50,880 nucleotides of DNA, taken from IMG/VR virus record IMGVR_UViG_3300044878_000188, positions 1-50,880 of that record; one strand, given 5' to 3'. The DNA comes from a virus. Lineage: Duplodnaviria; Caudoviricetes. Below, piece after piece: positions 1 through 50,880 of the stretch (within the stretch, counting starts at the first letter, position 1; each line of letters starts with the position of its first letter). Both the position numbers and the translations under genes were made by a program. Under the pieces are notes generated by a model. The model searched no databases. It saw only the letters and a list, made by a program, of their open reading frames with translations, and was not told where the DNA came from.

Positions 1-283
1 CGCCGATTTGCTGCGAGCCGCGGTGCTCCATCAGCAGCGGCGCGCCCGAGCGCAAACGCGCCAGATCGACCGCATCTGCCGAGTGATCGAGCACCTCGTA
101 GCCGAAGTAACGACGCACGGGGTACTCACTAGAAACTGCAACCTCGACGGTGCGGGCCTCCAGGTTGATGGTCGACAGGTCGACCGCGAGCGCACGCTCG
201 AGGAGCTTTCCCGCGATCGTGCGCAGCACCGGCAACGGCGCAGGCTTACTCGTCGTCGTCGACGGGATCGTGCTTACGGTCAT
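1..283 (-). CDS. Prohead protease-major capsid fusion, 5' part (runs off the window)
   Basis: Near-identical to the start of 38074-39963 (MTVSTIPS...); ATG at 283 overlaps the portal 3' end. Confidence 0.8.
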   Translation of the reverse strand, partial: MTVSTIPSTTTSKPAPLPVLRTIAGKLLERALAVDLSTINLEARTVEVAVSSEYPVRRYFGYEVLDHSADAVDLARLRSGAPLLMEHRGSQQIG

Positions 284-1763
284 TGGTGTTTTCCGTGTTG
301 GTTGATGGGTCCGGCAGCAGCCCTTTTTTGCGCAGCAGCGCTTCCTCGGCCTCGATCTCGTCAAAGATCTGCTCGGGGTCGTCGCCGTTGGCTCGGATGT
401 ACTCGGAACGTGATTTGGTGCGGTTGGCGATGCTCTCGCTGGCTGCTTTTGCGTCCTTGAGAGGGTCGACCCAGTCCCAGCCACGGGCCTGCCAGGCCTG
501 CTCGCTGCAGCGCTCCATATCGCGCGGCGCGATTTTCAGAGCGCCTTTCAGCACAGCGCAGTCGAACCAGGTCGGGCCGATACGCTCGAGCAGGTCGCTG
601 ATAGCCATTTCTTGCGCGCACTTGTAAAAGTCGCGCTCGTCCAGTTCGCCAGATCGAAGCGAGGAGAAATTCACCCCCTCGAGATCGTTCGCCAGCCGGT
701 TGTAGCTGGGGCCGAGGCCACCGGCCGAACTGCGCTGGTTGTCCTTCACAAACGGCGCGTAGTCGCTACCAGGCGAGGCCGTCTGGTGCTGCTTGTAGCT
801 CAAGCCATACGGCAGCAAACGCGCAGTGCCGGCCTCGACGGTTTCGTAAACCTCCTCGTCAGTGCCTTCGTCTGGCGGGTCCAGCCACTCGGGGTTTTGC
901 TCGAAAAAGCCAGTGATCTTGGCCGACTGCTCAGCCTTTACCCGCGTAGCGCTTCGGAACTCCTCCAGGTGATGGATATCGAGAGCCGCCGCATGCGTCC
1001 AGGTGAACCCGCGCGCCTGGTGCGCTCGCCAGTTATCGAAGCTATGCACCAGGTCAGCGGCGGGGATTCGCTCGTATTTTTCCTCGGGGGTCTGGTAGAC
1101 GTCGCCGGGGTGACTGCGCAGGAGCCAATAAGCGATCGGGCGCTCGTATTGATCGAGCTCGACGCCCATTCGAATACGGTTGCCGTTGGTCAACATGGTG
1201 TTGAGGTTCAAGTCGAGGCGATCGGCCTCGAGGATCTGCACCGCAAAGCCCCACTTGTTCGGCCAGTTGCGATGGAGCCGCACCAGCACCTCACCGTCAC
1301 GCGCGAGCGTCTCGACCCACAGCCATAGAAAACTGACGTAGGAGTATCGCCCGGTGACGTCAAAGCTCCCCTTTTTGGTGAACTTGCCCCATTCCTTCTC
1401 GATCAGGCGCCGCACAATGCGATCGGGCGTGCCGTCTTTCAGCACCGCTTTCGACTGCAGGCGAATACCGTAGGGGCCGATTACGTTCTGTCGCAGCAGC
1501 CGATAAAAGCGCTTGAGCAACGAGGTATTGATCGACTGCTCGCGCGCCCTCTGGCGCAGCGTCTCGTGATCGCCGTAAATCTCCTGGTTGGCATCTGCGC
1601 CGCTCGACCTGGCCGACCAGCTGCTCGTCAGGCGGCCTTTGCCGGCCATCTTGAAGCCGCGACGACCGACAGTAGGTTCGCGACGCCCGGCGCCGGCGTC
1701 GAGCGCAGGCGTGCGCTTGCCGCCCAGGCCGAACCAGGACAACGCGCGTTTGAGCGGTTTCAT
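246..1763 (-). CDS. Portal protein, lambda family
   Basis: 505 aa; NFSSLRSG and WDWVDPLKD motifs; lies between adaptor and protease/capsid. Confidence 0.9.
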   Translation of the reverse strand: MKPLKRALSWFGLGGKRTPALDAGAGRREPTVGRRGFKMAGKGRLTSSWSARSSGADANQEIYGDHETLRQRAREQSINTSLLKRFYRLLRQNVIGPYGIRLQSKAVLKDGTPDRIVRRLIEKEWGKFTKKGSFDVTGRYSYVSFLWLWVETLARDGEVLVRLHRNWPNKWGFAVQILEADRLDLNLNTMLTNGNRIRMGVELDQYERPIAYWLLRSHPGDVYQTPEEKYERIPAADLVHSFDNWRAHQARGFTWTHAAALDIHHLEEFRSATRVKAEQSAKITGFFEQNPEWLDPPDEGTDEEVYETVEAGTARLLPYGLSYKQHQTASPGSDYAPFVKDNQRSSAGGLGPSYNRLANDLEGVNFSSLRSGELDERDFYKCAQEMAISDLLERIGPTWFDCAVLKGALKIAPRDMERCSEQAWQARGWDWVDPLKDAKAASESIANRTKSRSEYIRANGDDPEQIFDEIEAEEALLRKKGLLPDPSTNTENTNDRKHDPVDDDE

Positions 1764-1767
1764 AGGG

Positions 1768-2283
1768 CTATCTCAGTCGGAATTTAACGTGGCGGCCGCA
1801 GGGCCAGCGGCTTGATTTGGCCCGCTGAATCTCGCGCTGATACTTCGTTCGCAGTGTGTCCAGACGCTCGATCGGAATCCGGTCGAGGCGCATGCCGTCG
1901 ATTTCGTAGCTCTGCTGATCTTTCGGGATGCGCTTCTCGAGCGCAGCCTCGATCAGGCCGAGCATTTTCTGCGCGTGGGTCCGTGCGTCTGTCGGCTCGG
2001 CCGTCTCAAGGTTGGCCGAGACGTCCAGGGTGCCGGTGGCCACCGTCAGGCGCTGATCGCCTCGAAAGGCCAGAGCGACCCAGCGATAAAGGCCTGGCTG
2101 CCAGTTGGCAGTAGTCTCGGCGCTAACTTCGACCTGGTAAGGGGTTGTCTGCAGCGCCTCGACGACTTGGCGATCGGGACCGCTGAACACGTAGCGCAGC
2201 CCCCAACCGGCAGAAGCCGGGCGATCGGGCACGTCACGCGACCAGGCGGCAGAGTCGCCGGCATGAATTTGTGTCGGTTCCAT
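1768..2283 (-). CDS. Head-tail adaptor (gpW-like C-terminus)
   Basis: QSYEIDGMRL motif; lies between terL and portal; start trimmed to ATG 2283. Confidence 0.65.
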   Translation of the reverse strand: MEPTQIHAGDSAAWSRDVPDRPASAGWGLRYVFSGPDRQVVEALQTTPYQVEVSAETTANWQPGLYRWVALAFRGDQRLTVATGTLDVSANLETAEPTDARTHAQKMLGLIEAALEKRIPKDQQSYEIDGMRLDRIPIERLDTLRTKYQREIQRAKSSRWPCGRHVKFRLR

Positions 2284-2320
2284 TGGATTCACTCGACGCC
2301 GGCAGGCGGCGCCGACGGCG

Positions 2321-4360
2321 CTACCTGGTCGGCTTTTTAATGATTTTGAAACGACCACCACGGGCCTTGGCTGGCGGGGCGTCGGCCTTGCGTTGCCGGG
2401 CGGCAGGCTTAGCCGTTACTGGCGGCGGTCGCGGCGCTACAGGTGCCGGCGCCGTTTCTGGCTCGTCCTCCTGCAGATCCTCGTCGCCCTCCTCCCGCAC
2501 CGGCCCGGCCTTGATGGCAGGCATAAGCTCGACACGGGTCAGGGCGCCCAACTTGCGGCGCTGCAGCTTGTCGCGCAGCGCCATGATGTATTGCATCGCC
2601 TCGCAGTCGAGGGCGTGGTTTTCGCCAACCTGGACGAAAATCCCCTCGGCCTCGCGCCATTCCTCGCCGACAATCTCTTTGCAGTAACCCTCGGTTACTT
2701 GCTGGTGCAGCAGCCACCAGCCCGTGCGGGTGTCCTCGCGATTGAAGCGCCCGTGAACCCAGCGTTTCGCAAATGGGGAGTCGAACGCCCAGCGGGCGTC
2801 TCCACGCTTGCGCGTCTTACCCTTCTTGTCGACCTCGACGACCTCCTTTCGGAAAGGCTTATCGAGTCGGTCGCGACCACGCAGGGCAATCACCCGGTTT
2901 TTGTTGCCGTCGTTGATAAAGCGATAGACCTGGTCATCGCGATAACCAATGTCGATGCCGGTCATGCTGATTGAATGGCCGTCGTACTCAGTGTCGATTA
3001 GATCACTGAGCTGATCCCATACGCCGTCCTGGTCCGTTTCGCCCCATAGCTCGCCATGCTCCAGGAGCATCGAGCCCATACCGGCAAACCAGGCGCGCAC
3101 AACGTAGACAAGGCGTCGTTTCTGGACGTCAACCGTGCAGTAGATTTTCAGCGGCTCGAGCAGCAGCTCGCCCGCTTTGTATCCCCAGCACATAGACCTG
3201 ACTTGCTCCCAGGTCGGAACGTCGCCGGCCTGCGCGTAGCACTCGCCAAAACCCGTGTTATAGACGGCCAAAAGGTCTGCCGGATCGCCTGACAGCTGAG
3301 CCGCCAATAGATCCTTGGCCAACGCGCCATAGGTCTTTTTCGAGGAGAACGAGCACAAGCCCGACGCCGCGAAAGAGAAGTGAGTCGAGCCGGCCGTATC
3401 CGCGACGCCTGTTACCTCGCCGTCGCGGCTGATCGATTGACCAGGTGCAACGGCGCGGCCGCGCTCGTTCATCCAGGGGCGCCACTTGCTTTCGATCTGG
3501 CAGCCACTGGCGCCGCAGGTCAGCCGGGCGCCGCGCTGAGCTTCGTCAGGCGTACATTCGTTTTCCGATCCCTTGCCTGGCCACCAGAGCAGCCCCGACC
3601 AGGGAATAAAATACTCGCCGCACTCAGGGCACGGGACCGCCCACTCGTGACGGGTGCCGGACTGCCAGAGCTTCCAGACCGCAGAGCCGAGCGTCTTTAC
3701 TGAGGCGACGTCCCAATGCTCGAGACCCGACTTTTCGTGCCTCCGCTTGCTCACTCGGCCGTGCGTTGGCGTGGCCGTGTAGCCGATTTTCGACCCGTCG
3801 TAGGCGTCGCCTCGACGCTCGACCAGGCTCACCGTCGAGCCCTCGCCCGTGTTAACGATCCGATCGACCTCGTCGACCATAATCAGGCCGGCAGAGTCGG
3901 CCGACAGGCCAGAAGGCGAGCCCGCCCAAACGAAACGCAGCTTTGTGCCGGCGATCCATTTCACGAACGTTGTCGATTTTCGAACGTCCAGTTTTTTGGT
4001 CAACGACTCGCATTCGGCGATCATGTCGTCGAACTTCGGAACCACCGCATCTTTCAGCAGCGGCGCCGTCGGCGCGATGTACATGATCGGCGTCGGATCT
4101 TCGTCCATCCGGTGGCCAATGATGTTTTCCATCGTGACCGACTTGCCCATCTGCGTGGCCGTGATGAATGTCACCCGGTCAAAACAAGGCTGAGCAAAGG
4201 CCCACGAGACGGGGCGCATGTACGGGTTTACGTCAGGATTGAACGGGCCGGGCCGGGGCGAGCTGGGGGGCATGATGCGCTTGTCGCGCGCCCATTCGTC
4301 AGCTGTCCTCGGCGGCGGCGCCTGAACCAGGTTCGAGACGTAATGAATCGAGGCGATCAA
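2321..4360 (-). CDS. terL: Terminase large subunit, lambda GpA family
   Basis: Walker A TQMGKS, Walker B MVDEVD, CPEC motif, VDVQ nuclease motif, NHALDC; start uncertain (TTG 4360 or ATG 4465). Confidence 0.92.
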   Translation of the reverse strand: MIASIHYVSNLVQAPPPRTADEWARDKRIMPPSSPRPGPFNPDVNPYMRPVSWAFAQPCFDRVTFITATQMGKSVTMENIIGHRMDEDPTPIMYIAPTAPLLKDAVVPKFDDMIAECESLTKKLDVRKSTTFVKWIAGTKLRFVWAGSPSGLSADSAGLIMVDEVDRIVNTGEGSTVSLVERRGDAYDGSKIGYTATPTHGRVSKRRHEKSGLEHWDVASVKTLGSAVWKLWQSGTRHEWAVPCPECGEYFIPWSGLLWWPGKGSENECTPDEAQRGARLTCGASGCQIESKWRPWMNERGRAVAPGQSISRDGEVTGVADTAGSTHFSFAASGLCSFSSKKTYGALAKDLLAAQLSGDPADLLAVYNTGFGECYAQAGDVPTWEQVRSMCWGYKAGELLLEPLKIYCTVDVQKRRLVYVVRAWFAGMGSMLLEHGELWGETDQDGVWDQLSDLIDTEYDGHSISMTGIDIGYRDDQVYRFINDGNKNRVIALRGRDRLDKPFRKEVVEVDKKGKTRKRGDARWAFDSPFAKRWVHGRFNREDTRTGWWLLHQQVTEGYCKEIVGEEWREAEGIFVQVGENHALDCEAMQYIMALRDKLQRRKLGALTRVELMPAIKAGPVREEGDEDLQEDEPETAPAPVAPRPPPVTAKPAARQRKADAPPAKARGGRFKIIKKPTR

Positions 4361-4871
4361 CGTCCGCAGAGAGCTCACGTGATCGATGTTCGAGGCGCTC
4401 GGCAGTAGCTGCGCGGATTCGCCTCGTTTCTTCAAATAGTCGAGCTCGGATAAGGGCAGGGTCATCGATAATCGCCAGATCGGCAGCACACCGGCTCGGC
4501 AGCGCGTCGAGCTGCGTTGCGTACACTGCCGCGATGCTGGTGTTAAGGGTGACAAACGTCTCGTTCGGGATCAGTCGGCCGCGCACCTGGTCAATTTCGA
4601 GCTGTAGCTTTTCGCGCCTTGCACGCTTGAGCAACCGATCCTCAGTTGACGCAGAGCTGAGCCCCTCCTCGTCGTCGCCATCGTCGCCCATTTCCCGGCG
4701 CACTTCGCGCAGGATCAGCCATTCGATAGCGGCCTGACTGTCGATCTGGACGGCGACCCCTCGGCCCCCTCCCCCAGCGACTGGCAAACCTTCGTCGATC
4801 AACTTTGAGATCCAGCGCTCTGACTTACCCAGGAGATCGGCAAGGTCTTTTTTGCTGATCGTTTTGCCCAT
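4299..4871 (-). CDS. terS: Terminase small subunit (Nu1-like)
   Basis: N-terminal wHTH (SKKDLADLLGKSERWI..EGLP) followed by a coiled coil; lies between cos and terL. Confidence 0.85.
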   Translation of the reverse strand: MGKTISKKDLADLLGKSERWISKLIDEGLPVAGGGGRGVAVQIDSQAAIEWLILREVRREMGDDGDDEEGLSSASTEDRLLKRARREKLQLEIDQVRGRLIPNETFVTLNTSIAAVYATQLDALPSRCAADLAIIDDPALIRARLFEETRRIRAATAERLEHRSRELSADVDRLDSLRLEPGSGAAAEDS

Positions 4872-4875
4872 GGGA

Positions 4876-4947
4876 GAAAGGACCAAAAGAGAAAAAGTAT
4901 AAAAGTACAAAGGTACAAAAGTCCTTTCTGACCTTTGTCCTTTGTGC
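4876..4947. repeat. 8-bp-period array (CAAAGGTA/TACCTTTG family), two opposed blocks
   Basis: gaaaggac caaaagag aaaaagta taaaagta caaaggta caaaagtc, then ctttctga cctttgtc ctttgtgc. Confidence 0.75.
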
Positions 4948-5068
4948 TTTCGGAAAATTGGGTTGAGGCCCCGTCGTACCTGGCCGAGCGGTCAGGCTGG
5001 CGATGCAGGGCGGGGGGCCTCAAGTTCGGAAGTACGGACCCGACACGCGGGAAGTGACACGCGCGAAG

Positions 5069-5115
5069 CCCGCGAGTTAGTCACCCGTGAAGGGGGAGGG
5101 TCCGGGGGAGGACCC
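5069..5115 (-). other. cos site (cosQ plus cosN-like)
   Basis: Minus strand GGGTCCT-N17-TTCAC GGGTGACTAACT CGCGG resembles lambda GGGTCCT...TTACG GGGCGGCGACCT CGCGG; directly upstream of terS. Confidence 0.75.
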
Positions 5116-5133
5116 AAAATGCAGGGCGCACCA

Positions 5134-5604
5134 TCATGGTGCAGGGCGAGCGACCGCGGCCAGCTTGGCCCCATCGATCGACGCGACGCAGCAGCCTGTA
5201 GCGAAGTCGCCGACGAACATCTGGTCAGCGGCCACGCCGTCGCGCTTGTAGACCTCGAGGCCTGCGATCAATCCAACGCGCGCGGCCTGATGCAGGTTCT
5301 GCTTGAGTCGGTAGCCTTCGAGCTTCCAGAGCTCATCGGCGGCCAGCGCCTTGGCCTTGGATATAGCGGCGTCACGACCGAGCACCTCGCGGAAGTTCTC
5401 TGGACTCACGCACGCCGAAGTGCCCAACGCCACTACGAAGCCTGTCGCGTCGATGGCAGCCGCGACCGTTGTAGTCGTGCCTGGAATCACATACGTGTGA
5501 AAGCTCAGCTCTTTAGTAAGCGCCTCGATCTGCGCGAAGGCGATGCGGGGAGCGGTCAAACCGAGGGCCGTGATTTGCTGCTCGAGCGATTGATCGTTGC
5601 TCAT
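5134..5604 (-). CDS. N4 Gp49/Sf6 gp66-family protein (candidate Acb4-like nucleotide sponge)
   Basis: TAPRI..., GF.V.G.SACVSPENF...G, LWKLEGYRLK family motifs. Confidence 0.75.
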   Translation of the reverse strand: MSNDQSLEQQITALGLTAPRIAFAQIEALTKELSFHTYVIPGTTTTVAAAIDATGFVVALGTSACVSPENFREVLGRDAAISKAKALAADELWKLEGYRLKQNLHQAARVGLIAGLEVYKRDGVAADQMFVGDFATGCCVASIDGAKLAAVARPAP

Positions 5605-5645
5605 AGAAACCTTTCCAGGTGATAGGGGTAGACGCTGCCCAGGTC

Positions 5646-5673
5646 GTTATAACGGGCAAGTTCGGCATTTCAA
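5646..5673 (-). promoter_or_regulatory. Putative sigma70 promoter for the Gp49-family gene
   Basis: TTGAAA-N16-TATAAC on the minus strand, about 40 bp before the ATG. Confidence 0.45.
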
Positions 5674-5682
5674 GGGGAGGCC

Positions 5683-6201
5683 TTACGGCGGCGCCTGGCC
5701 ACCCTTGGCCGCGACTGCCTGGTATTGCTGCAACAGGCTCTGCAGCTTCGTCAGGCGCTCGGCGTTGACGTTGCACCTGGTGTAGTTTTCGGCGGTTGTT
5801 GCGGCGACGGTAGAGAGCGCAACTCCTGAGGGGGCTGCATCAGCGTCGCCGGCAGGATCAGGGGCTGGCAGAGGTCTGGCGGCGGCGGCGAGATCGTGCA
5901 CCCGCACAAAACCAGCGTTAACAGTGCAAGCGGCGTCAGCCTTAGCAGAGACATAAACCGGAACCTCTTTAATGATCGTGGCGCCGCGCTCCTTAATTAC
6001 CTGGACGCGATCGACGTATTCAGTGACGACGTTATCGCGCACCGTGCCCAACGCCTGGCCCTGCTCGAAAGCCTTGCTTAGGCGATCTAGCTCAGCCTGC
6101 GTTGCCTGGCCCTGCTCGTGATCGCCGCGCGCCATCCAGCCGAGGCCGAACAGCAGCGCACCGATCAGTGCCAGGCCAGCCAAACCGTAAAGACGACTCA
6201 T
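5683..6201 (-). CDS. rz: i-spanin
   Basis: N-terminal TM helix, periplasmic coiled coil with Cys residues, follows the endolysin. Confidence 0.85.
   Translation of the reverse strand: MSRLYGLAGLALIGALLFGLGWMARGDHEQGQATQAELDRLSKAFEQGQALGTVRDNVVTEYVDRVQVIKERGATIIKEVPVYVSAKADAACTVNAGFVRVHDLAAAARPLPAPDPAGDADAAPSGVALSTVAATTAENYTRCNVNAERLTKLQSLLQQYQAVAAKGGQAPP
5751..5954 (-). CDS. rz1: o-spanin lipoprotein embedded in rz
   Basis: Signal peptide with lipobox LCGC and a Pro-rich mature part; conserved in the second copy (45785-45982). Confidence 0.85.
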   Translation of the reverse strand: MSLLRLTPLALLTLVLCGCTISPPPPDLCQPLILPATLMQPPQELRSLPSPQQPPKTTPGATSTPSA

Positions 6202-6746
6202 AGGCCCACCCTGCAGAGTTCACGTTGTATTGAGCGGCGCACAACGATGCCGCCGCAGTCATTCGCCGCGATGCGGCAATCTTTGCCACCGACGTACACC
6301 CAGCGACCGAACTGCTCAGCGGTGCCGACCTGGTCGCCGGCATTGGCCCGGCGCAGAAGCGTGGACTTGGCCACCGCCCCGTGCCCGACGTTGTAGTGCA
6401 TGTCGGCGATAGCGATTTTGCAGAACAGCCCGACCGGGCCTGCTCGCTCCTGGACGAAATCGACGGAGTCGCCGAGGTCGCTCTGCAGGTACGCGGCGCA
6501 CTCCGGCTCAGTAGCCAGATCGCCGCGCCTTACTCCGGCCGTGTGGCCGGTGCAGATCGTCCAGACGCCGCCAGTGTCCGGGTACGCCTTGAATCGCGTC
6601 CCTTCCATTTCCGGCGTCAGCACCAGGAGGCCAGCAAAGATCGCCGCGCGCTCAACCGGCGCCGGCAAGCCTGTCTGATTGACCGTGAAACCGGCAGCAG
6701 CGAGCGAGAGCGTCACAGCAGCGACGATGCGCTGCAGGAGGGTCAT
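6198..6746 (-). CDS. Endolysin, GH24 lysozyme with hydrophobic (SAR-like) N-terminus
   Basis: E-x8-D-x5-T triad (EGTRFKAYPDTGGVWT), YNVG, STLLR and RW motifs. Confidence 0.9.
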   Translation of the reverse strand: MTLLQRIVAAVTLSLAAAGFTVNQTGLPAPVERAAIFAGLLVLTPEMEGTRFKAYPDTGGVWTICTGHTAGVRRGDLATEPECAAYLQSDLGDSVDFVQERAGPVGLFCKIAIADMHYNVGHGAVAKSTLLRRANAGDQVGTAEQFGRWVYVGGKDCRIAANDCGGIVVRRSIQRELCRVGL

Positions 6747-6994
6747 TGCTGGCCCCCTGAATCTCCCGGCACCTGGTCGCGCTTTCGAAGGCGAGCCCAG
6801 GCGAATTTAACGATCGGGTAAACCCAGCGACGGCCGACGCCGTCGAGCACCAGGAACACGGCATAAAACGCCATCAGGCGAATCGTCCATTCCTGATAGG
6901 TCAGGCCATAAATAAGCAGGCCGCCGCCCATGGGCGCGACCTTCGCCGCCTCGACCTTGGCCAGGCCGAGCAGGGAGATTTTTCCGTCATCCAC
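6743..6994 (-). CDS. Putative holin
   Basis: About 83 aa, hydrophobic segments, basic C-terminal tail, overlaps the endolysin start; GTG start inferred. Confidence 0.65.
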   Translation of the reverse strand: MDDGKISLLGLAKVEAAKVAPMGGGLLIYGLTYQEWTIRLMAFYAVFLVLDGVGRRWVYPIVKFAWARLRKRDQVPGDSGGQQ

Positions 6995-7014
6995 GAAAGG
7001 CGCACCCACAAAGT

Positions 7015-7036
7015 AAAAAGCCCGCACAGGGCGGGC
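7015..7036 (-). terminator. Intrinsic terminator upstream of the holin
   Basis: GCCCGC-loop-GCGGGC followed by T5 on the minus strand. Confidence 0.6.
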
Positions 7037-7072
7037 AAGGGAGGGAATAGGCCGAGGCCAGAAAGCAGGCGA

Positions 7073-7408
7073 TTACGACAGCAGCGCGTATGCCCGACCG
7101 AGGGTAATTCGAAGGTCGTACCCGTTTGCCAGGGCCGCCGCGCAGAAAGTGCGATTGCCTGGCGTGAACTCCAATTGACGCCGGTACGCCTCAACCTCGG
7201 ATCGCAGCCGATAGGCCCGCGAAAAACGGTAAAGCAGCCCATGAAGCCCGAACGTCCGCCAGAACTGGCGAACATGCACGCGCTCATGCTCGAGCAACCC
7301 CTGATCGCCTTTGAATTGCGGGCGAATGAATATGAATGGGCCGCGCGCAGCGCCCGCAAACGCTTTTCCAACCAGGCGATTGGTGTAAAACACAATAGAA
7401 GGAGGCAT
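7073..7408 (-). CDS. Small HExxH zincin-like protein
   Basis: 111 aa; LLEHERVHVRQ and a downstream EVEAY motif; conserved in the second copy. Confidence 0.7.
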   Translation of the reverse strand: MPPSIVFYTNRLVGKAFAGAARGPFIFIRPQFKGDQGLLEHERVHVRQFWRTFGLHGLLYRFSRAYRLRSEVEAYRRQLEFTPGNRTFCAAALANGYDLRITLGRAYALLS

Positions 7409-7532
7409 AGACAGAAGTCCTGCGAGTGCGGGAGGGCAGGCGAGCGCCTGCGCATTAAGAAGTGGCCGCGCATAGTGCGCGGCCGGGGCGGGCTTATTAA
7501 TTGCCGCCAAGATCAGCGAACGCCAGAAACGC

Positions 7533-7558
7533 AAAAGCCCGCTCAGGTGGCGGGCTTT
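7533..7558 (-). terminator. tR'-like terminator after the late promoter
   Basis: AAAGCCCGC-loop-GCGGGCTTTT; conserved at 47545-47570 with a different loop. Confidence 0.75.
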
Positions 7559-7581
7559 GTCGTATGTATCGCAGAGTGGAT

Positions 7582-7611
7582 AAAGTACCCTTTTTCGCGT
7601 TACTTTTGCAA
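7582..7611 (-). promoter_or_regulatory. pR'-like Q-dependent late promoter
   Basis: TTGCAA-N18-TACTTT, then a terminator; lies downstream of Q and upstream of lysis; conserved at 47594-47623. Confidence 0.65.
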
Positions 7612-7613
7612 GG

Positions 7614-7670
7614 GGTCTTTTTACCTTTTGCGCTTTTTTACTTTTGTACTTTTGGCCTTTTGGGCTTTTG
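7614..7670. repeat. 8-bp-period array adjoining the late promoter
   Basis: tacctttt gcgctttt ... tacttttg tacttttg gccttttg ggcttttg. Confidence 0.7.
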
Positions 7671-7869
7671 CCCAGTTCAAAATTCCAACCGGCTGCACGC
7701 CATCATCAACGACGCAGGCATCAGCCTTGCGCACAATGTTCACATATCCGGCCGGCTCTCTGCTGAGGTAGCAATCGTGCTCCTCTCGCAGGAATGGCAC
7801 CTCCTCGCCGACCAGGCCCGCGTACCACATCAATCTGTCACTACAGCCGGTAATTATTAGCCTGAGCAT
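7621..7869 (-). CDS. Hypothetical phage protein (absent from the second copy)
   Basis: 82 aa; ATG overlaps the stop of the upstream gene. Confidence 0.6.
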   Translation of the reverse strand: MLRLIITGCSDRLMWYAGLVGEEVPFLREEHDCYLSREPAGYVNIVRKADACVVDDGVQPVGILNWAKAQKAKSTKVKKRKR

Positions 7870-8189
7870 TATGACCTCACTGCACGAGCCCAGCCGGCTC
7901 GCGCTCCCTCGATAGTGGCGTAACCTTCGTCGACAAAGTCGCAGCAAGGGCAACGAGAGCCCCAGCGAGCCGACCGGATAAAGAACCGAGCAACCCCTTT
8001 CCCCTTGCACGTATGCGGCGGCAGATCTGGATCATTGACCAGGTGCCAGCTGGCGAGCGCCCTGACCTCGCTCGGATGCACCTCGCCCCTATTACTGCAG
8101 ATAGTGCAGACCCACAAAAATAGGCCAGAGCCAGGCTGGTGGCGTCGCTCAGGAGCTGCACCACAGTGCAGGCAGACAGGGGCGGTCAT
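7869..8189 (-). CDS. Double zinc-ribbon protein, Lar-like
   Basis: CLHCG..CTIC..A..SW, followed by a second C..CPCC..A..GW module. Confidence 0.6.
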   Translation of the reverse strand: MTAPVCLHCGAAPERRHQPGSGLFLWVCTICSNRGEVHPSEVRALASWHLVNDPDLPPHTCKGKGVARFFIRSARWGSRCPCCDFVDEGYATIEGARAGWARAVRS

Positions 8190-8191
8190 CG

Positions 8192-8605: not shown

Positions 8606-8608
8606 GAT

Positions 8609-9201: not shown

Positions 9202-9230
9202 AGCGTTTCCCTCGTGGTTTTTTGGTTTGG

Positions 9231-41443: not shown

Positions 41444-41447
41444 AGGG

Positions 41448-41963: not shown

Positions 41964-42000
41964 AGGATTCACTCGACGCCAGCAGGTGGCGCCGAGGGCG

Positions 42001-44070: not shown

Positions 44071-44581
44071 CGTCCGCAGAGAGCTCGCGTGATCGATGTT
44101 CGAGGCGCTCGGCAGTAGCCGCGCGGATTCGCCTCGTTTCTTCAAATAGTCGAGCTCGGATAAGGGCAGGGTCATCGATAATCGCCAGGTCGGCAGCACA
44201 CCGGCTTGGCAGCGCGTCGAGCTGCGTTGCGTACACTGCCGCGATGCTAGTGTTAAGGGTGACGAACGTCTCGTTCGGGATCAGCCGGCCGCGCACCTGG
44301 TCAATTTCGAGCTGCAGCTTTTCGCGACGGGCGCGCTTTAGCAGCCGATCCTCGGTTGACGCAGAACTGAGCCCCTCCTCGTCGTCGCCGTCGTCGCCCA
44401 TTTCCCGGCGAACTTCGCGCAGGATCAGCCACTCGATCGCGGCCTGACTGTCGATCTGGACGGCGACCCCTCGGCCCCCTCCCCCAGCGACTGGCAAACC
44501 TTCGTCGATCAACTTCGAGATCCAGCGCTCGGACTTGCCAAGGAGATCGGCAAGGTCTTTTTTGCTGATCGTCTTGCCCAT
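44009..44581 (-). CDS. terS: Terminase small subunit
   Basis: One residue different from 4299-4871. Confidence 0.85.
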   Translation of the reverse strand: MGKTISKKDLADLLGKSERWISKLIDEGLPVAGGGGRGVAVQIDSQAAIEWLILREVRREMGDDGDDEEGLSSASTEDRLLKRARREKLQLEIDQVRGRLIPNETFVTLNTSIAAVYATQLDALPSRCAADLAIIDDPALIRARLFEETRRIRAATAERLEHRSRELSADVDRLDSLRLEPGAGAAAEDS

Positions 44582-44585
44582 GGGA

Positions 44586-44657
44586 GAAAGGACCAAAAGA
44601 GAAAAAGTATAAAAGTACAAAGGTACAAAAGTCCTTTCTGACCTTTGTCCTTTGTGC
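44586..44657. repeat. 8-bp-period array upstream of terS
   Basis: Identical to 4876-4947. Confidence 0.75.
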
Positions 44658-44778
44658 TTTCGGAAAATTGGGTTGAGGCCCCGTCGCACCTGGCCGAGCG
44701 GTCAGGCTGGCGATGCAGGGCGGGGGGCCTCAAGTTCGGAAGTACGGACCCGACACGCGGGAAGTGACACGCGCGAAG

Positions 44779-44825
44779 CCCGCAAGTTAACCACCCGTGA
44801 AGGGGGAGGGTCGGGGGGAGGACCC
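44779..44825 (-). other. cos site (cosQ plus cosN-like)
   Basis: GGGTCCT-N17-TTCAC GGGTGGTTAACT TGCGG. Confidence 0.75.
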
Positions 44826-44878
44826 AAATACCCAAGGCGCACCATTTTGGTGCGAGATCGGGCAAAATGACCGAACCC

Positions 44879-45358
44879 CTACCCCACCGGGGCCGGGCCG
44901 GGGCCGGCCGGGATGGCCTGGCTCGCATTGATCGAGGCAACGCAGAAGCCAGTAGCGACATCACCAACGAACATACGATCTTCGCCCACGCCGTCGTGCT
45001 GGTAGATCTCAAGGCCTGCGATCAATCCAACCTTTGAGGCCTGATAAATGTTCTGCTTGAGTCGGTAGGCCTCGAGCTTCCACAGCTCATTGCGCGCCGC
45101 CGTCTTGGCCTTGGCGATCGCATTGTTTCGGCCCACCGATTCGCTGAATTCAGCCGCAATGGAGACGTTCGCGCTCACGGTAGCAACCTCGAAACCTGCA
45201 GGATTCAGCGCAGAGGCGAGAGTCGTTGTTGTGCCAGGAATCAAGTAAGTGTGAAAGCTCAACTGCTCGACCAGAGCGTCGATCTGGTCTGGTGTGATAC
45301 GGGGCGCGGTCAAGCCGAGGGCCGTGATTTGCTGCTCGAGCGATTGGTCGTTGCTCAT
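44879..45358 (-). CDS. Gp49-family protein (divergent allele)
   Basis: Orthologue of 5134-5604 with a diverged core. Confidence 0.75.
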   Translation of the reverse strand: MSNDQSLEQQITALGLTAPRITPDQIDALVEQLSFHTYLIPGTTTTLASALNPAGFEVATVSANVSIAAEFSESVGRNNAIAKAKTAARNELWKLEAYRLKQNIYQASKVGLIAGLEIYQHDGVGEDRMFVGDVATGFCVASINASQAIPAGPGPAPVG

Positions 45359-45387
45359 AGAAACCTTTCCAGTCGAATGTTTGAGAA

Positions 45388-45741
45388 TCAGGCGAACTGC
45401 TCTACGCGCGTATTGATAATTCCCAGATACAGAACCATTGCGTCGGCCTGCATCTTCAGCAGCTGCCGCTCGTCATCCGGCAAGCCTGCAAATACTGGCG
45501 TGGACAGGAACGCCTCCAGCTTTTTGATGCGATCTGCGAGCTGCTCGCACTCACCAATCACGCGCTGCTGATGCGGCGGCAGGTGGCCGACATGCCCCAT
45601 GGACACATAGGCAGCCTCGAAAACATCCTTCGGGCTCCAACTGATGTAGCCATCCGAGTACTTCACCGCATAGCCGGGGACGCCTTCCTTGTCCTGCGGC
45701 CATGCCAAGACCTGCTTGGTGCCGATGTAGTGTTGGGTCAT
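45388..45741 (-). CDS. Two-domain protein: YIGTK..SWSPK domain plus crAss001_48-like helical hairpin
   Basis: YIGTK.V.A.P..GY.V.Y.DGY.SWSPK.VFE.AY, then HQQRV..E..QL..RI.KL..F...LL..Q..AM..Y..I...R. Confidence 0.7.
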   Translation of the reverse strand: MTQHYIGTKQVLAWPQDKEGVPGYAVKYSDGYISWSPKDVFEAAYVSMGHVGHLPPHQQRVIGECEQLADRIKKLEAFLSTPVFAGLPDDERQLLKMQADAMVLYLGIINTRVEQFA

Positions 45742-46229
45742 TGCCTGTACTCCTGGTATTCGCGAACGATTGTCTGCAGCTTGCTCAGCTGCTCAGCGTT
45801 GGCATTGCAGTCGGTGTAGTTGGCGGCCGTGGTAGCGGCGACGGTAGAGAGCGCAATTCCCGAGGGGGCTTCATCAGCAGCGCCGGAGGGCTCAGGGGCT
45901 GGCAGAGATCTGGCGCTTGCGTCATGCACCCGCACAAAGCCAGCGTTAACAGTGCAAGCGGCGTCAGCCTGAGCAGAGACATAAACCGGAACCTCTTTAA
46001 TGATGGTTGCGCCGCGTTCCTTGATCACCTGGACGCGGTCGACGTATTCAGTGACGACGTTGTCGCGCACCGTGCCCAGCTCCTGGCCTTGCTCGAAGGC
46101 TTTGCGCAACTGGTCGCGCTCGACCTGTACCGCGTCGGTTCTTTCGTACCAGGAGCCAAATAGGCAGCCAAAGCAGAACAGCAAAGCGCCGACGATGATC
46201 GCCGCCAGCCAGACGTTTGAACGACTCAT
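45738..46229 (-). CDS. rz: i-spanin
   Basis: Orthologue of 5683-6201 with a different TM segment. Confidence 0.85.
   Translation of the reverse strand: MSRSNVWLAAIIVGALLFCFGCLFGSWYERTDAVQVERDQLRKAFEQGQELGTVRDNVVTEYVDRVQVIKERGATIIKEVPVYVSAQADAACTVNAGFVRVHDASARSLPAPEPSGAADEAPSGIALSTVAATTAANYTDCNANAEQLSKLQTIVREYQEYRQ
45785..45982 (-). CDS. rz1: o-spanin embedded in rz
   Basis: Lipobox LCGC, Pro-rich. Confidence 0.85.
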   Translation of the reverse strand: MSLLRLTPLALLTLALCGCMTQAPDLCQPLSPPALLMKPPRELRSLPSPLPRPPTTPTAMPTLSS

Positions 46230-46774
46230 AAACGCACCAGATATACCTGTCGCTGAAGTTCGCGGCGCCTTGGAATCCCGCCGCAGTTGTTTTTGGCCAC
46301 TCGACAATCCATACCGGCAACGAACATCCAGCGCCCGAACTGCTGCGCCGCCAGCTCATGCAAGCCGGCCTTGGCGTACTGCAGCAATGTCGACCGGGCA
46401 AGGGCGCGAAGGCCGAGGTTGTAGGCGAAGTCGGCCAAGGCGATCTTGGCGAACAGCGGGGCGGCGGGAACCTCCCGCATGACGAAATCGACAGCCTGGC
46501 CGAGATCGGCACGCAGATATGCCTCGCACTGCTCAGGCCTGGCCACGTTTCCGCGCCTGACGCCAAGCGTGTGACCGGTGCAGATCGTCCAGACCCCCCC
46601 GGTATCGGGATAAGCCTCGTAGACCGTCCCTTCCATTTCCGGCGTCATCACCAGCAGCGCCGCCATGATGGCAGCACGCTCGACCGGCGCCGGCAGGCCT
46701 GTCTCGCTTACCGTAAAGCCGGCAGCGGCGAGCGAGAGCGTCACAGCAGCGACGATGCGCTGCAGGAGGGTCAT
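46226..46774 (-). CDS. Endolysin, GH24
   Basis: EGTVYEAYPDTGGVWT catalytic triad. Confidence 0.9.
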   Translation of the reverse strand: MTLLQRIVAAVTLSLAAAGFTVSETGLPAPVERAAIMAALLVMTPEMEGTVYEAYPDTGGVWTICTGHTLGVRRGNVARPEQCEAYLRADLGQAVDFVMREVPAAPLFAKIALADFAYNLGLRALARSTLLQYAKAGLHELAAQQFGRWMFVAGMDCRVAKNNCGGIPRRRELQRQVYLVRL

Positions 46775-47025
46775 TCGCCAGCTCCGGAAGCATCGCGGGC
46801 GGCACGTTTGTCGCGCAGCATTCGCCACAGCGGCAAAATCCATTTCCCCACAACGAAATGCAGGATCAGGATCACCGAGTAAATGCCGGCGAGGATGTAC
46901 GCCAAATCAAACGGAGTCAGGCCGCCGATGGTGAACGCGGCGGCGAGTGGAGCAAGCTTTGCTACCTCTGCGCCGGCGGAGACGTTCGCGACCGCCACTG
47001 TCGAAACGACTTCTTTGCCCACCAT
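46771..47025 (-). CDS. Putative holin
   Basis: GGAGG SD, hydrophobic, basic tail, coupled to the endolysin. Confidence 0.65.
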   Translation of the reverse strand: MVGKEVVSTVAVANVSAGAEVAKLAPLAAAFTIGGLTPFDLAYILAGIYSVILILHFVVGKWILPLWRMLRDKRAARDASGAGE

Positions 47026-47083
47026 AGGGCCTCCAGAAACGAAAAACCCCGCTGGATGGCGGGGCTCGGGTGAAATGAGGGTG

Positions 47084-47419
47084 TTACGCCAGCAGGGCGA
47101 AGGCCTTGGCGAGAGGAATGCCAAGATCGTATTTCAGATGAAGAAGCACCGCGAAGCGGCTACGACTGGCCGGATCGAACTCAAGCTGCCGACGATACGC
47201 CTCAACCTCTGAGCGGAGCCGGTAGGCACGCGAAAAGCGATAAAGGAAACCGTGGATCCCTAACGTCCTCCAGAACTGACGGACATGGACGCGCTCATGC
47301 TCAAGCAATCCACGATCGCCCTTGAACTCAGGGCGAATGAAAATGAAGGGGCCTCGCGCAGCGCCCGCAAAGTCCTTGCCCACCAAAAGATTGGTGTAAA
47401 ACACAATAGAGAGAGACAT
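47084..47419 (-). CDS. Small HExxH zincin-like protein
   Basis: Orthologue of 7073-7408. Confidence 0.7.
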   Translation of the reverse strand: MSLSIVFYTNLLVGKDFAGAARGPFIFIRPEFKGDRGLLEHERVHVRQFWRTLGIHGFLYRFSRAYRLRSEVEAYRRQLEFDPASRSRFAVLLHLKYDLGIPLAKAFALLA

Positions 47420-47544
47420 AGACAGAAGTCCTGCAAATGCGGGAAGACAGGCGAGCGCCTGCGCAAAAAGAAGTGACCGCGCATAGTGCGCGGCCGGGGA
47501 CGGGCTTATTAATTGCCGCCCCAATCAGCGAACGCCAGAAACGC

Positions 47545-47623
47545 AAAAGCCCGCTCAAATGGCGGGCTTTGTCGTATGTATCGCAGAGTGGATAAAGTAC
47601 CCTGTTTCGCGTTACTTTTGCAA
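47545..47623 (-). promoter_or_regulatory. pR'/tR'-like late promoter and terminator
   Basis: Matches 7533-7611. Confidence 0.65.
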
Positions 47624-47625
47624 GA

Positions 47626-47698
47626 GGTCTTTTTACCTTTTGCGCTTTTTCACCTTTGTACCTTTGTACCTTTGTACCTTTGTACTTTTTACCTTTTG
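47626..47698. repeat. 8-bp tandem array TACCTTTG
   Basis: cacctttg followed by three perfect tacctttg (47659-82) and variants. Confidence 0.85.
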
Positions 47699-47711
47699 GC
47701 TATTGGGCCAA

Positions 47712-48029
47712 TCACCTTGCAGCACGAGCCCAGCCGGCCCGCGCGCCTTCGATCGTGGCGTAACCTTCGTCGACAAAGTCGCAGGCGGGGCAACGAGAGC
47801 CCCAACGAGCAGACCTGATAAAGAACCGAGCAACCCCTTTCCCCTTGCACGTATGCGTCGACAACTCAGGATCGTTGACCAGGTGCCAGCTGGCCAGCGC
47901 CCTTGCTTCACTCGGATGCACCTCTCCCCGGTTATTACAGGCAGCGCAGACCCACAAAAAGCAACCAGAGGTCAGTTGCTGGCGGCGCTCAGGAGCCGCA
48001 CCACAGTGCAAACAGGCAGAGGCGGTCAT
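47712..48029 (-). CDS. Double zinc-ribbon Lar-like protein
   Basis: Orthologue of 7869-8189. Confidence 0.6.
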   Translation of the reverse strand: MTASACLHCGAAPERRQQLTSGCFLWVCAACNNRGEVHPSEARALASWHLVNDPELSTHTCKGKGVARFFIRSARWGSRCPACDFVDEGYATIEGARAGWARAAR

Positions 48030-48031
48030 CG

Positions 48032-48400
48032 TCAGTAACTCGAGGAGTCGGAGCTGCTCGAGCTGCTGCTCGAATCGGAACTGCTCGAGCTTCCAGAGTC
48101 ATAGCTCGGGCTGCAGCTGTAGCCGGAACCGCTAGAGCTCGAGCGACCCCAGGAGTCATCCGAGGCGGCCGGTGCGCAATGGCCGCGGCCCTGTTCGGGG
48201 TCGTGACGGGGCGGAGCATAAGCCTCGGCCTGACTAACCATACTCAGCGGCGAAAGCGGGTTCAACGGATTGAGCGAGTGCAACGGGTCGTGCATAGGCG
48301 AACGAAGCGTGATCGACGCCGCGCGATCACGCAGCCTTTGTCGATCGGCCTCAGCAGCAGCTTCACGGGCAAGACGGCGACGCTTGAAGAATCCGAACAT
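48032..48400 (-). CDS. Ser-rich phage protein
   Basis: Orthologue of 8192-8605. Confidence 0.7.
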   Translation of the reverse strand: MFGFFKRRRLAREAAAEADRQRLRDRAASITLRSPMHDPLHSLNPLNPLSPLSMVSQAEAYAPPRHDPEQGRGHCAPAASDDSWGRSSSSGSGYSCSPSYDSGSSSSSDSSSSSSSSDSSSY

Positions 48401-48424
48401 GATGCTTCCTCTTTTTTTTGATTG

Positions 48425-49267
48425 TTAAAGCTTTTTCCAGAGCGCCTCGAGCGCCCCGGTGTCGAGTTCGGCCAGAACGCTTTGCATGGCATCCCAGCGG
48501 GCGCGCCAGTGCTGGCGGTAGTTCACGTCGCTGACGCCCAGGAGCAGCGCCAGGTGCGGGCCGTCGTAACGACTTTTCCCTGCGTTCTTCAAATGCTTGT
48601 GATGCTGCACAGCCAAATGGGCCAGGCCCTTGGCGCGCTGCAGAGTCTTACCCTGCATTTTCCCTAGCTGGTCAGTTGCTCGAGCCCACAGCGTCACCAC
48701 GCAGCCGGCCTCGTCGTCCCACTCCAGCGAATCGGCGTAGGCGTAACGAATCCAGCGGCTTTGCTCAGTGGCGAGCGTGGCAACAGTCCTCACCAGGTGC
48801 GCGTCTTCGAAAGCCGTAGGGCCGAGCGGGATCGCGCTTTTTTTCTTCTTTCGCGTCTCGCTGCAGGTCACTCGCGTGGTATCCCTGGCCAAGCTGGCCA
48901 CGTAGTCGAGGGGGAGCTTTGTTACTTCGTCAGCACCTTCGAGCGGGCACTCGGCCAAGTCGTTGGCGCGATGGCGCGGGAAAGCGTCGCGCAGGCGAGC
49001 CGTCTCGATTACACCGACGCCGTCAGGTTCGGCCGGGCGATCTGTTTCGCGGTAGTCAGTCGGTGCCAAGTAGGCGAACAGCAGCCACTCGCGCAGCCAT
49101 ACCAGATCCTGCGCGATCGGCGCAGAGCCTGATCGACCACGGCGAATCTGAACCGGTGCAGGTGGCATAGGGATAACGTCGAGCACGCGCAGAGCCCAGC
49201 TTTCTACGGACTCAACAGGTGGCGGCGTGTGGCGGATCTCAAGCGAAAAGTTCGGGCGTGTGGTCAT
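48425..49267 (-). CDS. Q: Antiterminator Q
   Basis: Orthologue of 9231-10073, same length. Confidence 0.75.
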   Translation of the reverse strand: MTTRPNFSLEIRHTPPPVESVESWALRVLDVIPMPPAPVQIRRGRSGSAPIAQDLVWLREWLLFAYLAPTDYRETDRPAEPDGVGVIETARLRDAFPRHRANDLAECPLEGADEVTKLPLDYVASLARDTTRVTCSETRKKKKSAIPLGPTAFEDAHLVRTVATLATEQSRWIRYAYADSLEWDDEAGCVVTLWARATDQLGKMQGKTLQRAKGLAHLAVQHHKHLKNAGKSRYDGPHLALLLGVSDVNYRQHWRARWDAMQSVLAELDTGALEALWKKL

Positions 49268-49269
49268 GC

Positions 49270-49485
49270 TCAACGTCTCCGCGCCAGGGTCACATACTCG
49301 ACACACATCGAGCAGCGAGTTGCACGCGGAAACATGGCCAGCCGGCCGGCGCTGATCGGGTAGCCACAGGCCAGACAAAAGCGCTGGACCATCAGGCCGG
49401 CGTGCAGCACCTCATCAGCCATTAAGGCCTGAGCGACTGCGTCGTCTTGGCGCAGCTCGAGGCCGCTGGAAACGTCAGCGAACAT
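49270..49485 (-). CDS. TraR/DksA C4 zinc-finger protein
   Basis: CLACG...RCSMC. Confidence 0.85.
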   Translation of the reverse strand: MFADVSSGLELRQDDAVAQALMADEVLHAGLMVQRFCLACGYPISAGRLAMFPRATRCSMCVEYVTLARRR

Positions 49486-49720
49486 TGGCCGCCCCCTTCT
49501 GGCTGAGCAGGCCAGCAACGGCATAGCCGGCGCTTTTCTGATTGAACGACTGCACAAAGTCAGCACAGGCGGCCGACTCGTTGAAAAGGAGGTTATGCAC
49601 CTGGCTTTGCGTCGCAGCCTTTACCACGACACGCGCCTCAGAGAGGCCACGGCGACGAGGCAGCTCGAGCACCAGGACAGACTGACCACCCGCGACACTG
49701 AACAACCGAACCGACTTCAT
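49475..49720 (-). CDS. Hypothetical early protein
   Basis: Orthologue of 10281-10526. Confidence 0.7.
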   Translation of the reverse strand: MKSVRLFSVAGGQSVLVLELPRRRGLSEARVVVKAATQSQVHNLLFNESAACADFVQSFNQKSAGYAVAGLLSQKGAANVR

Positions 49721-50181
49721 TCGTCGGCCCCTTTGCGTGACGGCGGCGTAATCAATTGCGCGAAAGCGTGACTGTCACGCTTTGCGAGATCCGCCCCGGC
49801 GATCGCCAGAGCAGCAAAAACAGGAGCAAACAGGGCTTGGAAAGCCTCAGGGTCTTTTTTGGCCAGGTCAGACGAGCCATGCGCCAACAGGGTCAACGCC
49901 TCGGCCGACTCCTCGAATCCGCCAGCCTTGCAGACGTCGATCATGGCCTGCACGGTGCCGCCGTAGAGGGTCATCGCAGGCAGGTGGAAAGCCTCGGCTT
50001 TCAACTTGGCCTGAGCCTCGCGCAGGCGCTTCTTTTGCTGACGTTCCCGGTTCTGCCGCTTGACCTTCTCGGCCTTTGTTTCACCAGGCGCGGCGCCGAA
50101 ACGCTCGGCCAGTACCTCTTTATCGGTCGGAATGACGTCAGACTGTGCGATCGAGCTGACCAGGCGCAGGGCGGCACTCAT
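49717..50181 (-). CDS. Hypothetical early protein
   Basis: Orthologue of 10523-10987. Confidence 0.7.
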   Translation of the reverse strand: MSAALRLVSSIAQSDVIPTDKEVLAERFGAAPGETKAEKVKRQNRERQQKKRLREAQAKLKAEAFHLPAMTLYGGTVQAMIDVCKAGGFEESAEALTLLAHGSSDLAKKDPEAFQALFAPVFAALAIAGADLAKRDSHAFAQLITPPSRKGADE

Positions 50182-50780
50182 AGCGTCTCGCCTTTCATAT
50201 GCGCCAGAAGCAGCATAGGGAGCGGTCGGCCGGTGCCCGTAGACAGGGCCATCATTTCGTTAAACATGGCCGAAATCGCCTCGGCGCCTTCGGTCAGCAT
50301 CTTGTCGACCTCTGCCGGATCGTCGCTGACGTCGTATTTGCCGTCGTGTGCTGGGGCGCTTGCAGCCAGGAAATCACCGATAGACTTCGTAACCTCGCCC
50401 AGGTTGGACAAGGCCGAGGACGGGCCTACCAGGCCGACTAACTGAGGGATACGAACGTCGAAGCAGCCAGCCATTGCCAGAAGCTCGTGACGGGCGGCCT
50501 GCTGATACTCAGGCGGGAGGCAGGACAACCAAACCCATTTCCATTCGAGAGGGAAAGGCTGCGTTTCGTGAAAGACGCGCCCGACGCGAGTCGCCCAGGT
50601 CTTGCGGGTACGTTGATACGTCTCAACGTCCTCCGGGATCTCTAGGGGCTCAATAAGCCGAGCAGCGGCCAGAGCAGGCGCCAGACGATCGCTGGCGAAA
50701 CGTTCGATCGACCAATCCGAATGGGCAAACCATCGGCTAGTCTGTTCGACAACTACATCTCTTTCCGTCCGCGTAGTCAT
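50178..50780 (-). CDS. CII/YdaT-like early regulator (tentative)
   Basis: Orthologue of 10984-11583. Confidence 0.5.
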   Translation of the reverse strand: MTTRTERDVVVEQTSRWFAHSDWSIERFASDRLAPALAAARLIEPLEIPEDVETYQRTRKTWATRVGRVFHETQPFPLEWKWVWLSCLPPEYQQAARHELLAMAGCFDVRIPQLVGLVGPSSALSNLGEVTKSIGDFLAASAPAHDGKYDVSDDPAEVDKMLTEGAEAISAMFNEMMALSTGTGRPLPMLLLAHMKGETL

Positions 50781-50807
50781 AGCACCTTTCCCTGTTTTAT
50801 AGGTCGC

Positions 50808-50871
50808 ATGTAGCCATGACTACATTCTCTATATTTAGAGCAAAAATGCAAATAAATTTCTTTATACCGAG
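50808..50871. promoter_or_regulatory. OR-like operator region of the second copy
   Basis: ATGTAG-N6-CTACAT (50808-25), CTCTATATTTAGAG (50827-40), TTCTTTATACCGAG (50858-71). Confidence 0.6.
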
Positions 50872-50880
50872 TGGTGCCGC

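Follow-up and report, generated by a model that had tools for sequence, protein, structure and literature searches.

The IMG/VR record IMGVR_UViG_3300044878_000188 (Duplodnaviria, Caudoviricetes) is a lone metagenomic contig of 50,880 bp with 60.7% G+C, and the window analyzed here is this whole record. It carries the genes of a telomere phage followed by a second, diverged copy of part of them, and the present work concerns the origin of this arrangement. We call copy A the 5' copy, S the middle region, and copy B the 3' copy; strain 1 stands for A plus S and strain 2 for B. The open reading frames (ORFs) were scanned with Pfam and PHROGs (45 ORFs) or with PHROGs only (18 more), and several of their starts are probably over-extended. 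The scans reveal a complete myoviral telomere phage, with modules for packaging and head, for lysis and early functions, for immunity, replication and maintenance, and for the tail (Table 1). In agreement with a preliminary description of this DNA, no integrase family was found among the 63 scanned ORFs. A tRNA search of the window also found none.

The hallmarks of telomere phages are present in the window: a protelomerase with a ResT/TelK catalytic domain, a palindromic target site (telRL) next to its gene, a RepA-type protein, and ParA. The protelomerase has in addition a TelK_N match that is below the gathering score (E 2.6e-4), and its ORF probably begins too far upstream. The virion genes combine a contractile tail of the P2 type (sheath phrog_23, tube PF04985, gpU, gpD, and baseplate J/I/W/V) and packaging of the lambda type (domains GpA_ATPase and GpA_nuclease, Phage_Nu1, and Phage_portal_2, the latter with an E-value of 8.5e-86 in copy A). 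Each of the phages in the contig is most likely an ordinary monomeric telomere phage of the PhiHAP-1 type (Hapunavirus-like), which uses a lambda-type terminase for packaging at cos and has a contractile tail of the P2 type.

Self-BLAST bears out the earlier observation that the gene order repeats at about 39.7 kb. More precisely, positions 1-11681 have their counterpart in 39681-50878, as five colinear blocks with identities of 74-92% and an initial offset of 39,680. The portal genes previously placed at 246 and 39926 correspond to the ORFs 246-1763 and 39926-41443, and phrog_21 is matched in both copies. The contrast noted before between near-identical head genes and diverged lysis and early genes was recovered at the protein level. 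The packaging proteins are 96-99.5% identical between A and B (portal 98.0%, TerL 96.8%, TerS 99.5%, head-tail joining 96.4%), whereas the confidently paired lysis and early proteins range from 64 to 93% (among them endolysin 65.9%, gp49/66-like 63.9%, cII-like 74.4%, and Q 91.8%). The lysis and early regions also differ in content, as previously stated. The TerB-domain gene at 8764-9495 lies within a stretch found only in A (A 8610-9210 is a gap relative to B), and the ORF 45388-45741 (phrog_32732) sits in extra DNA of B and has no counterpart in A. The TerB-domain gene ("tellurite resistance") is a moron.

Upstream of TerS, both copies have a near-identical non-coding block of ~250 nt, the presumed cos region, within which the cut site could not be located from the sequence alone. 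The positions proposed earlier for cos, 5115 and 44825, are homologous and stand at the end of this block. Just past it (5118 and 44828), the identity between A and B falls from ~96-100% to ~60-75%, and the mosaic boundary between the variants coincides there with the presumed end of the virion genome.

Bases 1-127 of the contig are exactly those of 39681-39807, and the two copies first differ at base 128. In a k-mer census of the contig, just one 127-mer occurs twice (at 1 and at 39681) and no 128-mer does, the remaining exact runs between A and B being all of 117 nt or less. With 4.4% of mismatches in this part, a first mismatch exactly at base 128 has a probability of ~1.5e-4. The contig begins at an exact word that recurs once inside it, with no longer word being shared, and we infer that this lone duplicated 127-mer is the mark of a vertex of a k=127 de Bruijn graph that was passed twice (vertex V). 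A usual largest k in SPAdes and MEGAHIT is 127. Since the repeated word stands at one end only, it does not amount to a clean terminal direct repeat and would go unnoticed in routine circularity checks. We looked at the 3' end of the contig (50880) for a second k-mer shared with copy A and found none.

Table 1. Positions of the main features of the window, with strand and supporting evidence.
Feature	Position	Strand	Evidence or remark
Likely complete unit of the dominant PhiHAP-1-like telomere phage, strain 1 (A + S), 39,680 bp	1..39680	.	k-mer census; synteny; X1 contigs
Copy B, 11.1 kb likely from a minor co-occurring variant (strain 2)	39808..50880		Portal, terminase, cos, lysis, and early genes to the immunity-region spacer
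First copy of the exact 127-mer (vertex V)	1..127	.	Contig begins exactly here
Second copy of vertex V	39681..39807	.	Walk would leave the closed strain-1 circle here and enter strain 2 (copy B)
A/B block 1	1-5618 vs 39681-45372		92.2% (self-BLAST)
A/B block 2	5739-6747 vs 45773-46775		74.5% (self-BLAST)
A/B block 3	7166-7670 vs 47177-47682		86.2% (self-BLAST)
A/B block 4	7871-8459 vs 47711-48302		80.8% (self-BLAST)
A/B block 5	9191-11681 vs 48390-50878		84.4% (self-BLAST)
Copy A packaging genes	246..4910	-	Portal 246-1763, head-tail joining 1768-2361, gpA-type TerL 2321-4555, Nu1-like TerS 4299-4910
Conserved non-coding block upstream of TerS, presumed cos region	4911..5118	.	Copy B counterpart about 44621-44828
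Copy A lysis/early-right genes	5134..11583	-	gp49/66-like, signal-peptide protein, endolysin, Lar-like, TerB-domain, Q, cII-like (Pfam, PHROGs)
CI-like repressor with helix-turn-helix and S24 peptidase domains	11685..12395	+	Pfam, PHROGs
RepA-like primase-helicase replication protein, 1281 aa	12696..16541	+	phrog_4913 E 2.4e-290; 51% identical to PhiHAP-1 ORF36
Protelomerase	16822..18546	-	Pfam ResT-TelK_cat PF16684 E 8.9e-30, TelK_stirrup E 1.2e-7
telRL palindrome, protelomerase target	18704..18777	.	Centre 18740/18741; flanking ATACACCC-type repeats
ParA partition ATPase	19202..19849	+	phrog_164 E 1.8e-46; Pfam AAA_31
P2-type contractile tail module	22013..37363	-	gpD, gpU, tape measure, chaperone, tube, sheath, fibres, baseplate I/J/W/V, neck
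Prohead protease and major capsid fusion, overlapping vertex V	38074..40164	-	phrog_617 E 2.1e-146; Pfam Phage_capsid, Peptidase_S78
Copy B packaging genes	39926..44689	-	Portal 39926-41443, head-tail joining 41448-42182, TerL 42001-44199, TerS 44009-44689
Copy B lysis/early-right genes	44879..50780	-	Order of A; no TerB-domain gene; extra ORF 45388-45741
GTACAAAGGTAC-type boxes	4897-4924, 7638-7649, 12665-12676, 19121-19164; copy B 44607-44634, 47650-47685

The sequencing runs that contain this sequence are metagenomes of sediment, soil, and wastewater. A search with 36001-46000 gave 20 entries with part of this region, and the best run, X1, contains 0.61 of the sampled words. The Logan contigs of runs X1 to X4 were then placed on 30881-50880. 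In X1, the contigs on 30881-39937 show zero differences from the window up to 39807, with depths that rise from 190.3 (30.9-34.6 kb) through 217 (35.0-36.5 kb) to 245.5 (37.4-39.9 kb). The last of these depths is that of record 4 (38050-39937), which crosses the second copy of the 127-mer and differs from the window at 8 places, from 39808 to 39894. Record 4 has the letter of copy A at 8/8 of the A/B differences within 39808-39937, which implies that the abundant molecule runs from S back into A and closes a unit of 39,680 bp. The phasing of variants, called for in the preliminary description, has S continuing into A at the A-to-B switch, and in the X1 contigs we did not find the passage from S to B that a tandem would show as the true continuation of the strain-1 molecule.

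Depth tells the same story. Two B-specific contigs of X1 (45975-46673 and 46746-47436) have zero differences from the window and a depth of about 33, and the bins of the B region range from 18 to 41. The coverage comparison that had also been proposed, made here with the X1 contigs on 30881-50880, therefore opposes 190-245 for S to 18-41 for B. S is ~6-7-fold deeper than B, while the segments of a tandem should be equally abundant. The rise from 190 to 245 toward the capsid gene would fit the adding in of minor variants that are identical there. Other X1 contigs, at 44715-48527 and with a depth of about 18-33, match neither A nor B (they have A's letter at 6/32 differences among those listed) and are likely to represent a third related telomere-phage variant in this sample. 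A loose-end consensus is reported at 40007 in X1. Runs X2 to X4 have stretches of 30881-50880 without cover, from which we draw no conclusion of absence, nor do we for the head region of B in X1.

Taken together, we conclude with a probability of about 0.9 that the contig is an assembly chimera, made of a full turn of a 39.7-kb phage genome followed by a rarer related phage of the same sample. The contig would be a path through the k=127 de Bruijn graph of a metagenome with several related telomere phages. The graph of strain 1 (39,680 bp) would be circular because the sequenced DNA includes molecules that span cos (prophage or concatemer) as well as molecules that span tel (virion or replicative form). 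The minor strain 2 would be identical to strain 1 over part of the capsid/neck region and diverge right after 39681-39807. B-type phages have a backbone of their own, as shown by L010, a B-like contig of another data set. It matches 49374-50880 at 95.9% identity and then runs past the end of the window into its own repressor (CI)/RepA/protelomerase region, which is 76% identical to 10182-18417. An assembler starting at the 127-mer vertex would proceed through copy A and S back to this vertex and, as the A branch was already used, would continue into the B branch, to stop where the graph came to an end in the variable immunity spacer. While the behaviour of the assembler and the value of k are our reconstruction, the 127-mer, the continuity of S into A, and the gap in depth are direct observations. 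Among the origins considered in the preliminary description, these same three observations favor the assembly chimera, and a physical heterodimer is left unsupported. Its headline of a physical head-to-tail tandem is not supported, given the path of S into A and the unequal depths.

Some points weigh against this conclusion. The contig stops at 50880, in the spacer between the cII-like gene and CI, with no shared k-mer to account for the end of the walk, and neither the assembler nor its k is given in the record. The evidence from X1 consists of Logan contigs rather than raw reads and covers 30881-50880, the depth of copy A and the A-to-S junction (11.7 kb) being outside this range. Logan contigs drop rare variants, and a minor strain-1 molecule going from S to B could escape. 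X1 is not necessarily the source sample. Finally, the head region of B (40.2-44.2 kb) has nearly no depth in X1, which we attribute to variant popping.

Alternatively, the contig could be a physical A-S-B-S' molecule, i.e., a recombinational cointegrate or hetero-concatemer formed by two heteroimmune telomere phages that co-replicated in one cell and recombined in their identical capsid segment. The substrate for homologous recombination is there, since the stretch over which strains 1 and 2 are identical extends to at least ~2.4 kb (37.4-39.8 kb) and its depth of 245 looks like a sum of variants, both variants occur in the same run, and lambda-type cos phages form concatemers. Yet, the path of the contig is the sole positive evidence for such a molecule, and this path starts exactly at the lone duplicated 127-mer. 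The dominant continuation of S into A (8/8 differences) and the ~6-7 times shallower B argue against it, as do the cos sites, which are 39.7 kb apart, so that terminase would cut the molecule to monomers. Moreover, no contig of a relative exceeds one unit: PhiHAP-1 has 39,245 bp, 6/8 related isolate contigs have 36.3-39.6 kb (the other two are a gapped scaffold of 95.8 kb, from Pseudomonas sp. HS-2, and a 5-kb fragment), and 21/21 IMG/VR loci come from contigs of 40,964 bp or less, with 10/21 from contigs of 36.7-41.0 kb. The HS-2 scaffold (L001) was considered as another multi-copy case and dropped as a scaffolding artefact from which no evidence was drawn. Its first 20 kb contain four N runs (11,914 N in total) and exactly duplicated pieces, including two copies of the 5' region of the protelomerase gene. 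We regard a cointegrate as very unlikely. A weaker version, in which a small fraction of the molecules are real hetero-concatemers, made when co-infecting heteroimmune PhiHAP-1-like phages recombine in the capsid/neck segment during concatemeric replication in a Pseudomonas-like cell, seems to us about as unlikely. If true, the contig would be an intermediate of inter-phage recombination, with head genes exchanged against lysis/immunity modules.

The other physical arrangements fare worse. The contig as written would be explained by a single phage genome of at least 50.9 kb whose ends carry a real but diverged duplication of 11 kb, or by one host with a stable array of prophages in tandem, but the unit size of the relatives is 36.3-41.0 kb, the duplication holds a second full set of portal, terminase, and cos, the depths are unequal with S continuing into A, and the contig ends at neither tel nor cos. 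This makes either of them very improbable. Virion genomes of different strains annealed or ligated by their cohesive ends, the cos-joined cointegrate of the preliminary description, would have compatible ends given the near-identical presumed cos block of both copies. However, a joint at cos would put the strain switch at cos, and this contradicts what is seen: the cos block at 5.1 kb has A-type flanks on both sides, the one at 44.8 kb has B-type flanks on both sides, and the switch from A to B occurs in the capsid/portal overlap (39.7-39.8 kb), about 5 kb from cos. Furthermore, the cos-to-cos unit of the contig (early genes of A, S, and head genes of B) is not the dominant genome in X1. We give this option almost no credence.

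Telomere prophages are viewed as strictly monomeric, which a true heterodimer would have called into question; the evidence points instead to an assembly artefact. The suggestion that two related telomere phages occur in one sample is supported by the X1 contigs, and a third variant is probable. The sample holds at least 2, and probably 3, co-occurring heteroimmune variants of a Pseudomonas-type Hapunavirus-like telomere phage. With an identical capsid segment and different fibres, lysis, and immunity modules, these variants are a case of ordinary phage mosaicism. The contig is best split into a 39,680-bp genome and a separate 11.1-kb fragment before it is used for statistics of genome size, completeness, or gene counts. 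A single exact k-length word at the start of a contig that recurs inside it is a quick diagnostic of such strain chimeras, which checks for terminal repeats miss.

The palindrome earlier reported at 18740 is real. Its arms (18704-18740 and 18741-18777) have 37 nt each, are 92% complementary, and have no spacer between them. It lies about 160-200 nt upstream of the protelomerase gene, as expected of a tel site, and its core CTATACGTATAG is common to the window and to the annotated repeat region of PhiHAP-1 (26850-26948, between ParA and protelomerase), a palindrome with arms of 51 nt. After infection, the protelomerase would cut telRL, and the prophage would become a linear plasmid with hairpin ends that depends on RepA and ParA for its maintenance. 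The "unresolved" telRL of the preliminary description is not an anomaly, the intact palindrome being normal in the virion or replicative form: an intact internal tel is present in the PhiHAP-1 record, and an internal palindrome around the CTATACGTATAG core was found in nine of the fetched related loci (L003, L007, L008, L009, L010, L013, L020, L024, and L026). In N15, the DNA of the virion ends at cos and keeps telRL intact, while that of the prophage ends in tel hairpins and keeps cos intact. When both forms are mixed in the reads, a circular map with an intact internal tel is expected.

The window contig itself spans telRL, and the evidence for hairpins is indirect and comes from the contigs of relatives. 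Those of L001, L005, and L019 end 6-15 nt beyond the tel centre (L005:1-12, L019:1-25, and L001:1-20), as monomeric linear prophages are expected to do. The IMG/VR contig behind L016/L017 (31,688 bp) folds back on itself as a giant palindrome centred on the tel core, and its arm extends to the end of the locus and has at least 2.8 kb. Tel-ending and fold-back contigs are what hairpin-ended prophages would look like in assemblies. The L016/L017 contig is best read as a fold-back assembly across a hairpin telomere and, as such, as sequence evidence that a relative has a prophage form with hairpin ends. The entry of L005 is listed under a culture of the cyanobacterium Spirulina subsalsa, and its probable source is an associated heterotroph.

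The window has other repeats. The GTACAAAGGTAC-type boxes, which are phased by 8 nt, have 15 matches (with at most 2 mismatches) for 1.19 expected, and they cluster on the TerS start/cos side, just upstream of repA, just upstream of parA (there partly as inverted repeats), and in the lysis/Q spacer. By analogy they may be dispersed partition (centromere) or regulator sites. N15 has dispersed sopC-like sites. A tandem repeat of 51 nt (4.9 copies, 81% match) at 20609-20858 is inside the ORF 20524-20880, downstream of parA and orf19846, and could encode a repetitive protein or be a centromere- or iteron-like array. Two arrays of 36 nt, at 29180-29347 (4.7 copies) and 29494-29629 (3.8 copies), are in the tail-fibre gene 29117-30565 and probably encode repeated fibre-shaft units of 12 residues.

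The protelomerases closest to that of the window are those of Pseudomonas sp. HS-2 (75%) and P. frederiksbergensis (73%), followed by Stutzerimonas kunmingensis and P. cuatrocienegasensis (63%) and by Halomonas (54-57%). Except for HS-2, these Pseudomonas and Stutzerimonas homologues are on contigs of 36.7-39.6 kb. The nearest protelomerases and the G+C content suggest a Pseudomonas-like host. A megablast search of 11700-36000 against the phage collection gave no match, because the DNA of the relatives has diverged too far. Telomere prophages related to VP882 and PhiHAP-1 have been identified in Pseudomonas and Stutzerimonas (Sci Adv 2025, PMC12042878). The phages of the window add to this already reported group, from whose prophages they differ by being metagenomic and distinct at about 75% protein identity.

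The Halomonas phage PhiHAP-1 (Hapunavirus HAP1, NC_010342) matches 26/41 proteins of the window, colinearly and with 29-61% identity (55.8% for the protelomerase). The shared order runs through TerS, TerL, head-tail joining, portal, protease-capsid fusion, neck, P2-type baseplate, fibres, sheath, tube, tape measure, gpU, gpD, accessory genes, ParA, the tel repeat, protelomerase, RepA, repressor, cII-like, Q, Lar, and endolysin. PhiHAP-1 lacks a match for the other 15/41 proteins (tail fibres, most lysis genes, and accessory genes such as those with TerB-domain and DUF2528), and its DNA methyltransferase has no counterpart among the scanned ORFs of the window. Given the lack of a megablast match at the DNA level, the phage of the window does not belong to the species of PhiHAP-1, and probably not to its genus either. 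The Vibrio phage VP882 is of the same group of myoviral telomere phages as PhiHAP-1 and is more distant, with a protelomerase 48.1% identical over 87% of its length. VP882 carries a quorum-sensing receptor. Siphoviral telomere phages such as PY54 are at about 32% identity over 64% of the protelomerase. The coliphage N15, the model telomere phage, resembles the window in having a protelomerase with telRL beside the tel gene, a RepA-type protein, a partition system, and lambda-type cos packaging, but differs from it in being a siphovirus with a SopAB partition system and low sequence similarity. The virion and prophage maps of N15 are circular permutations of each other. As for the contig, its likeness is to the chimeras that de Bruijn assemblers produce from strain mixtures, with which it shares a length of over one unit, an exact repeat of k-length, diverged copies, and unequal depth.

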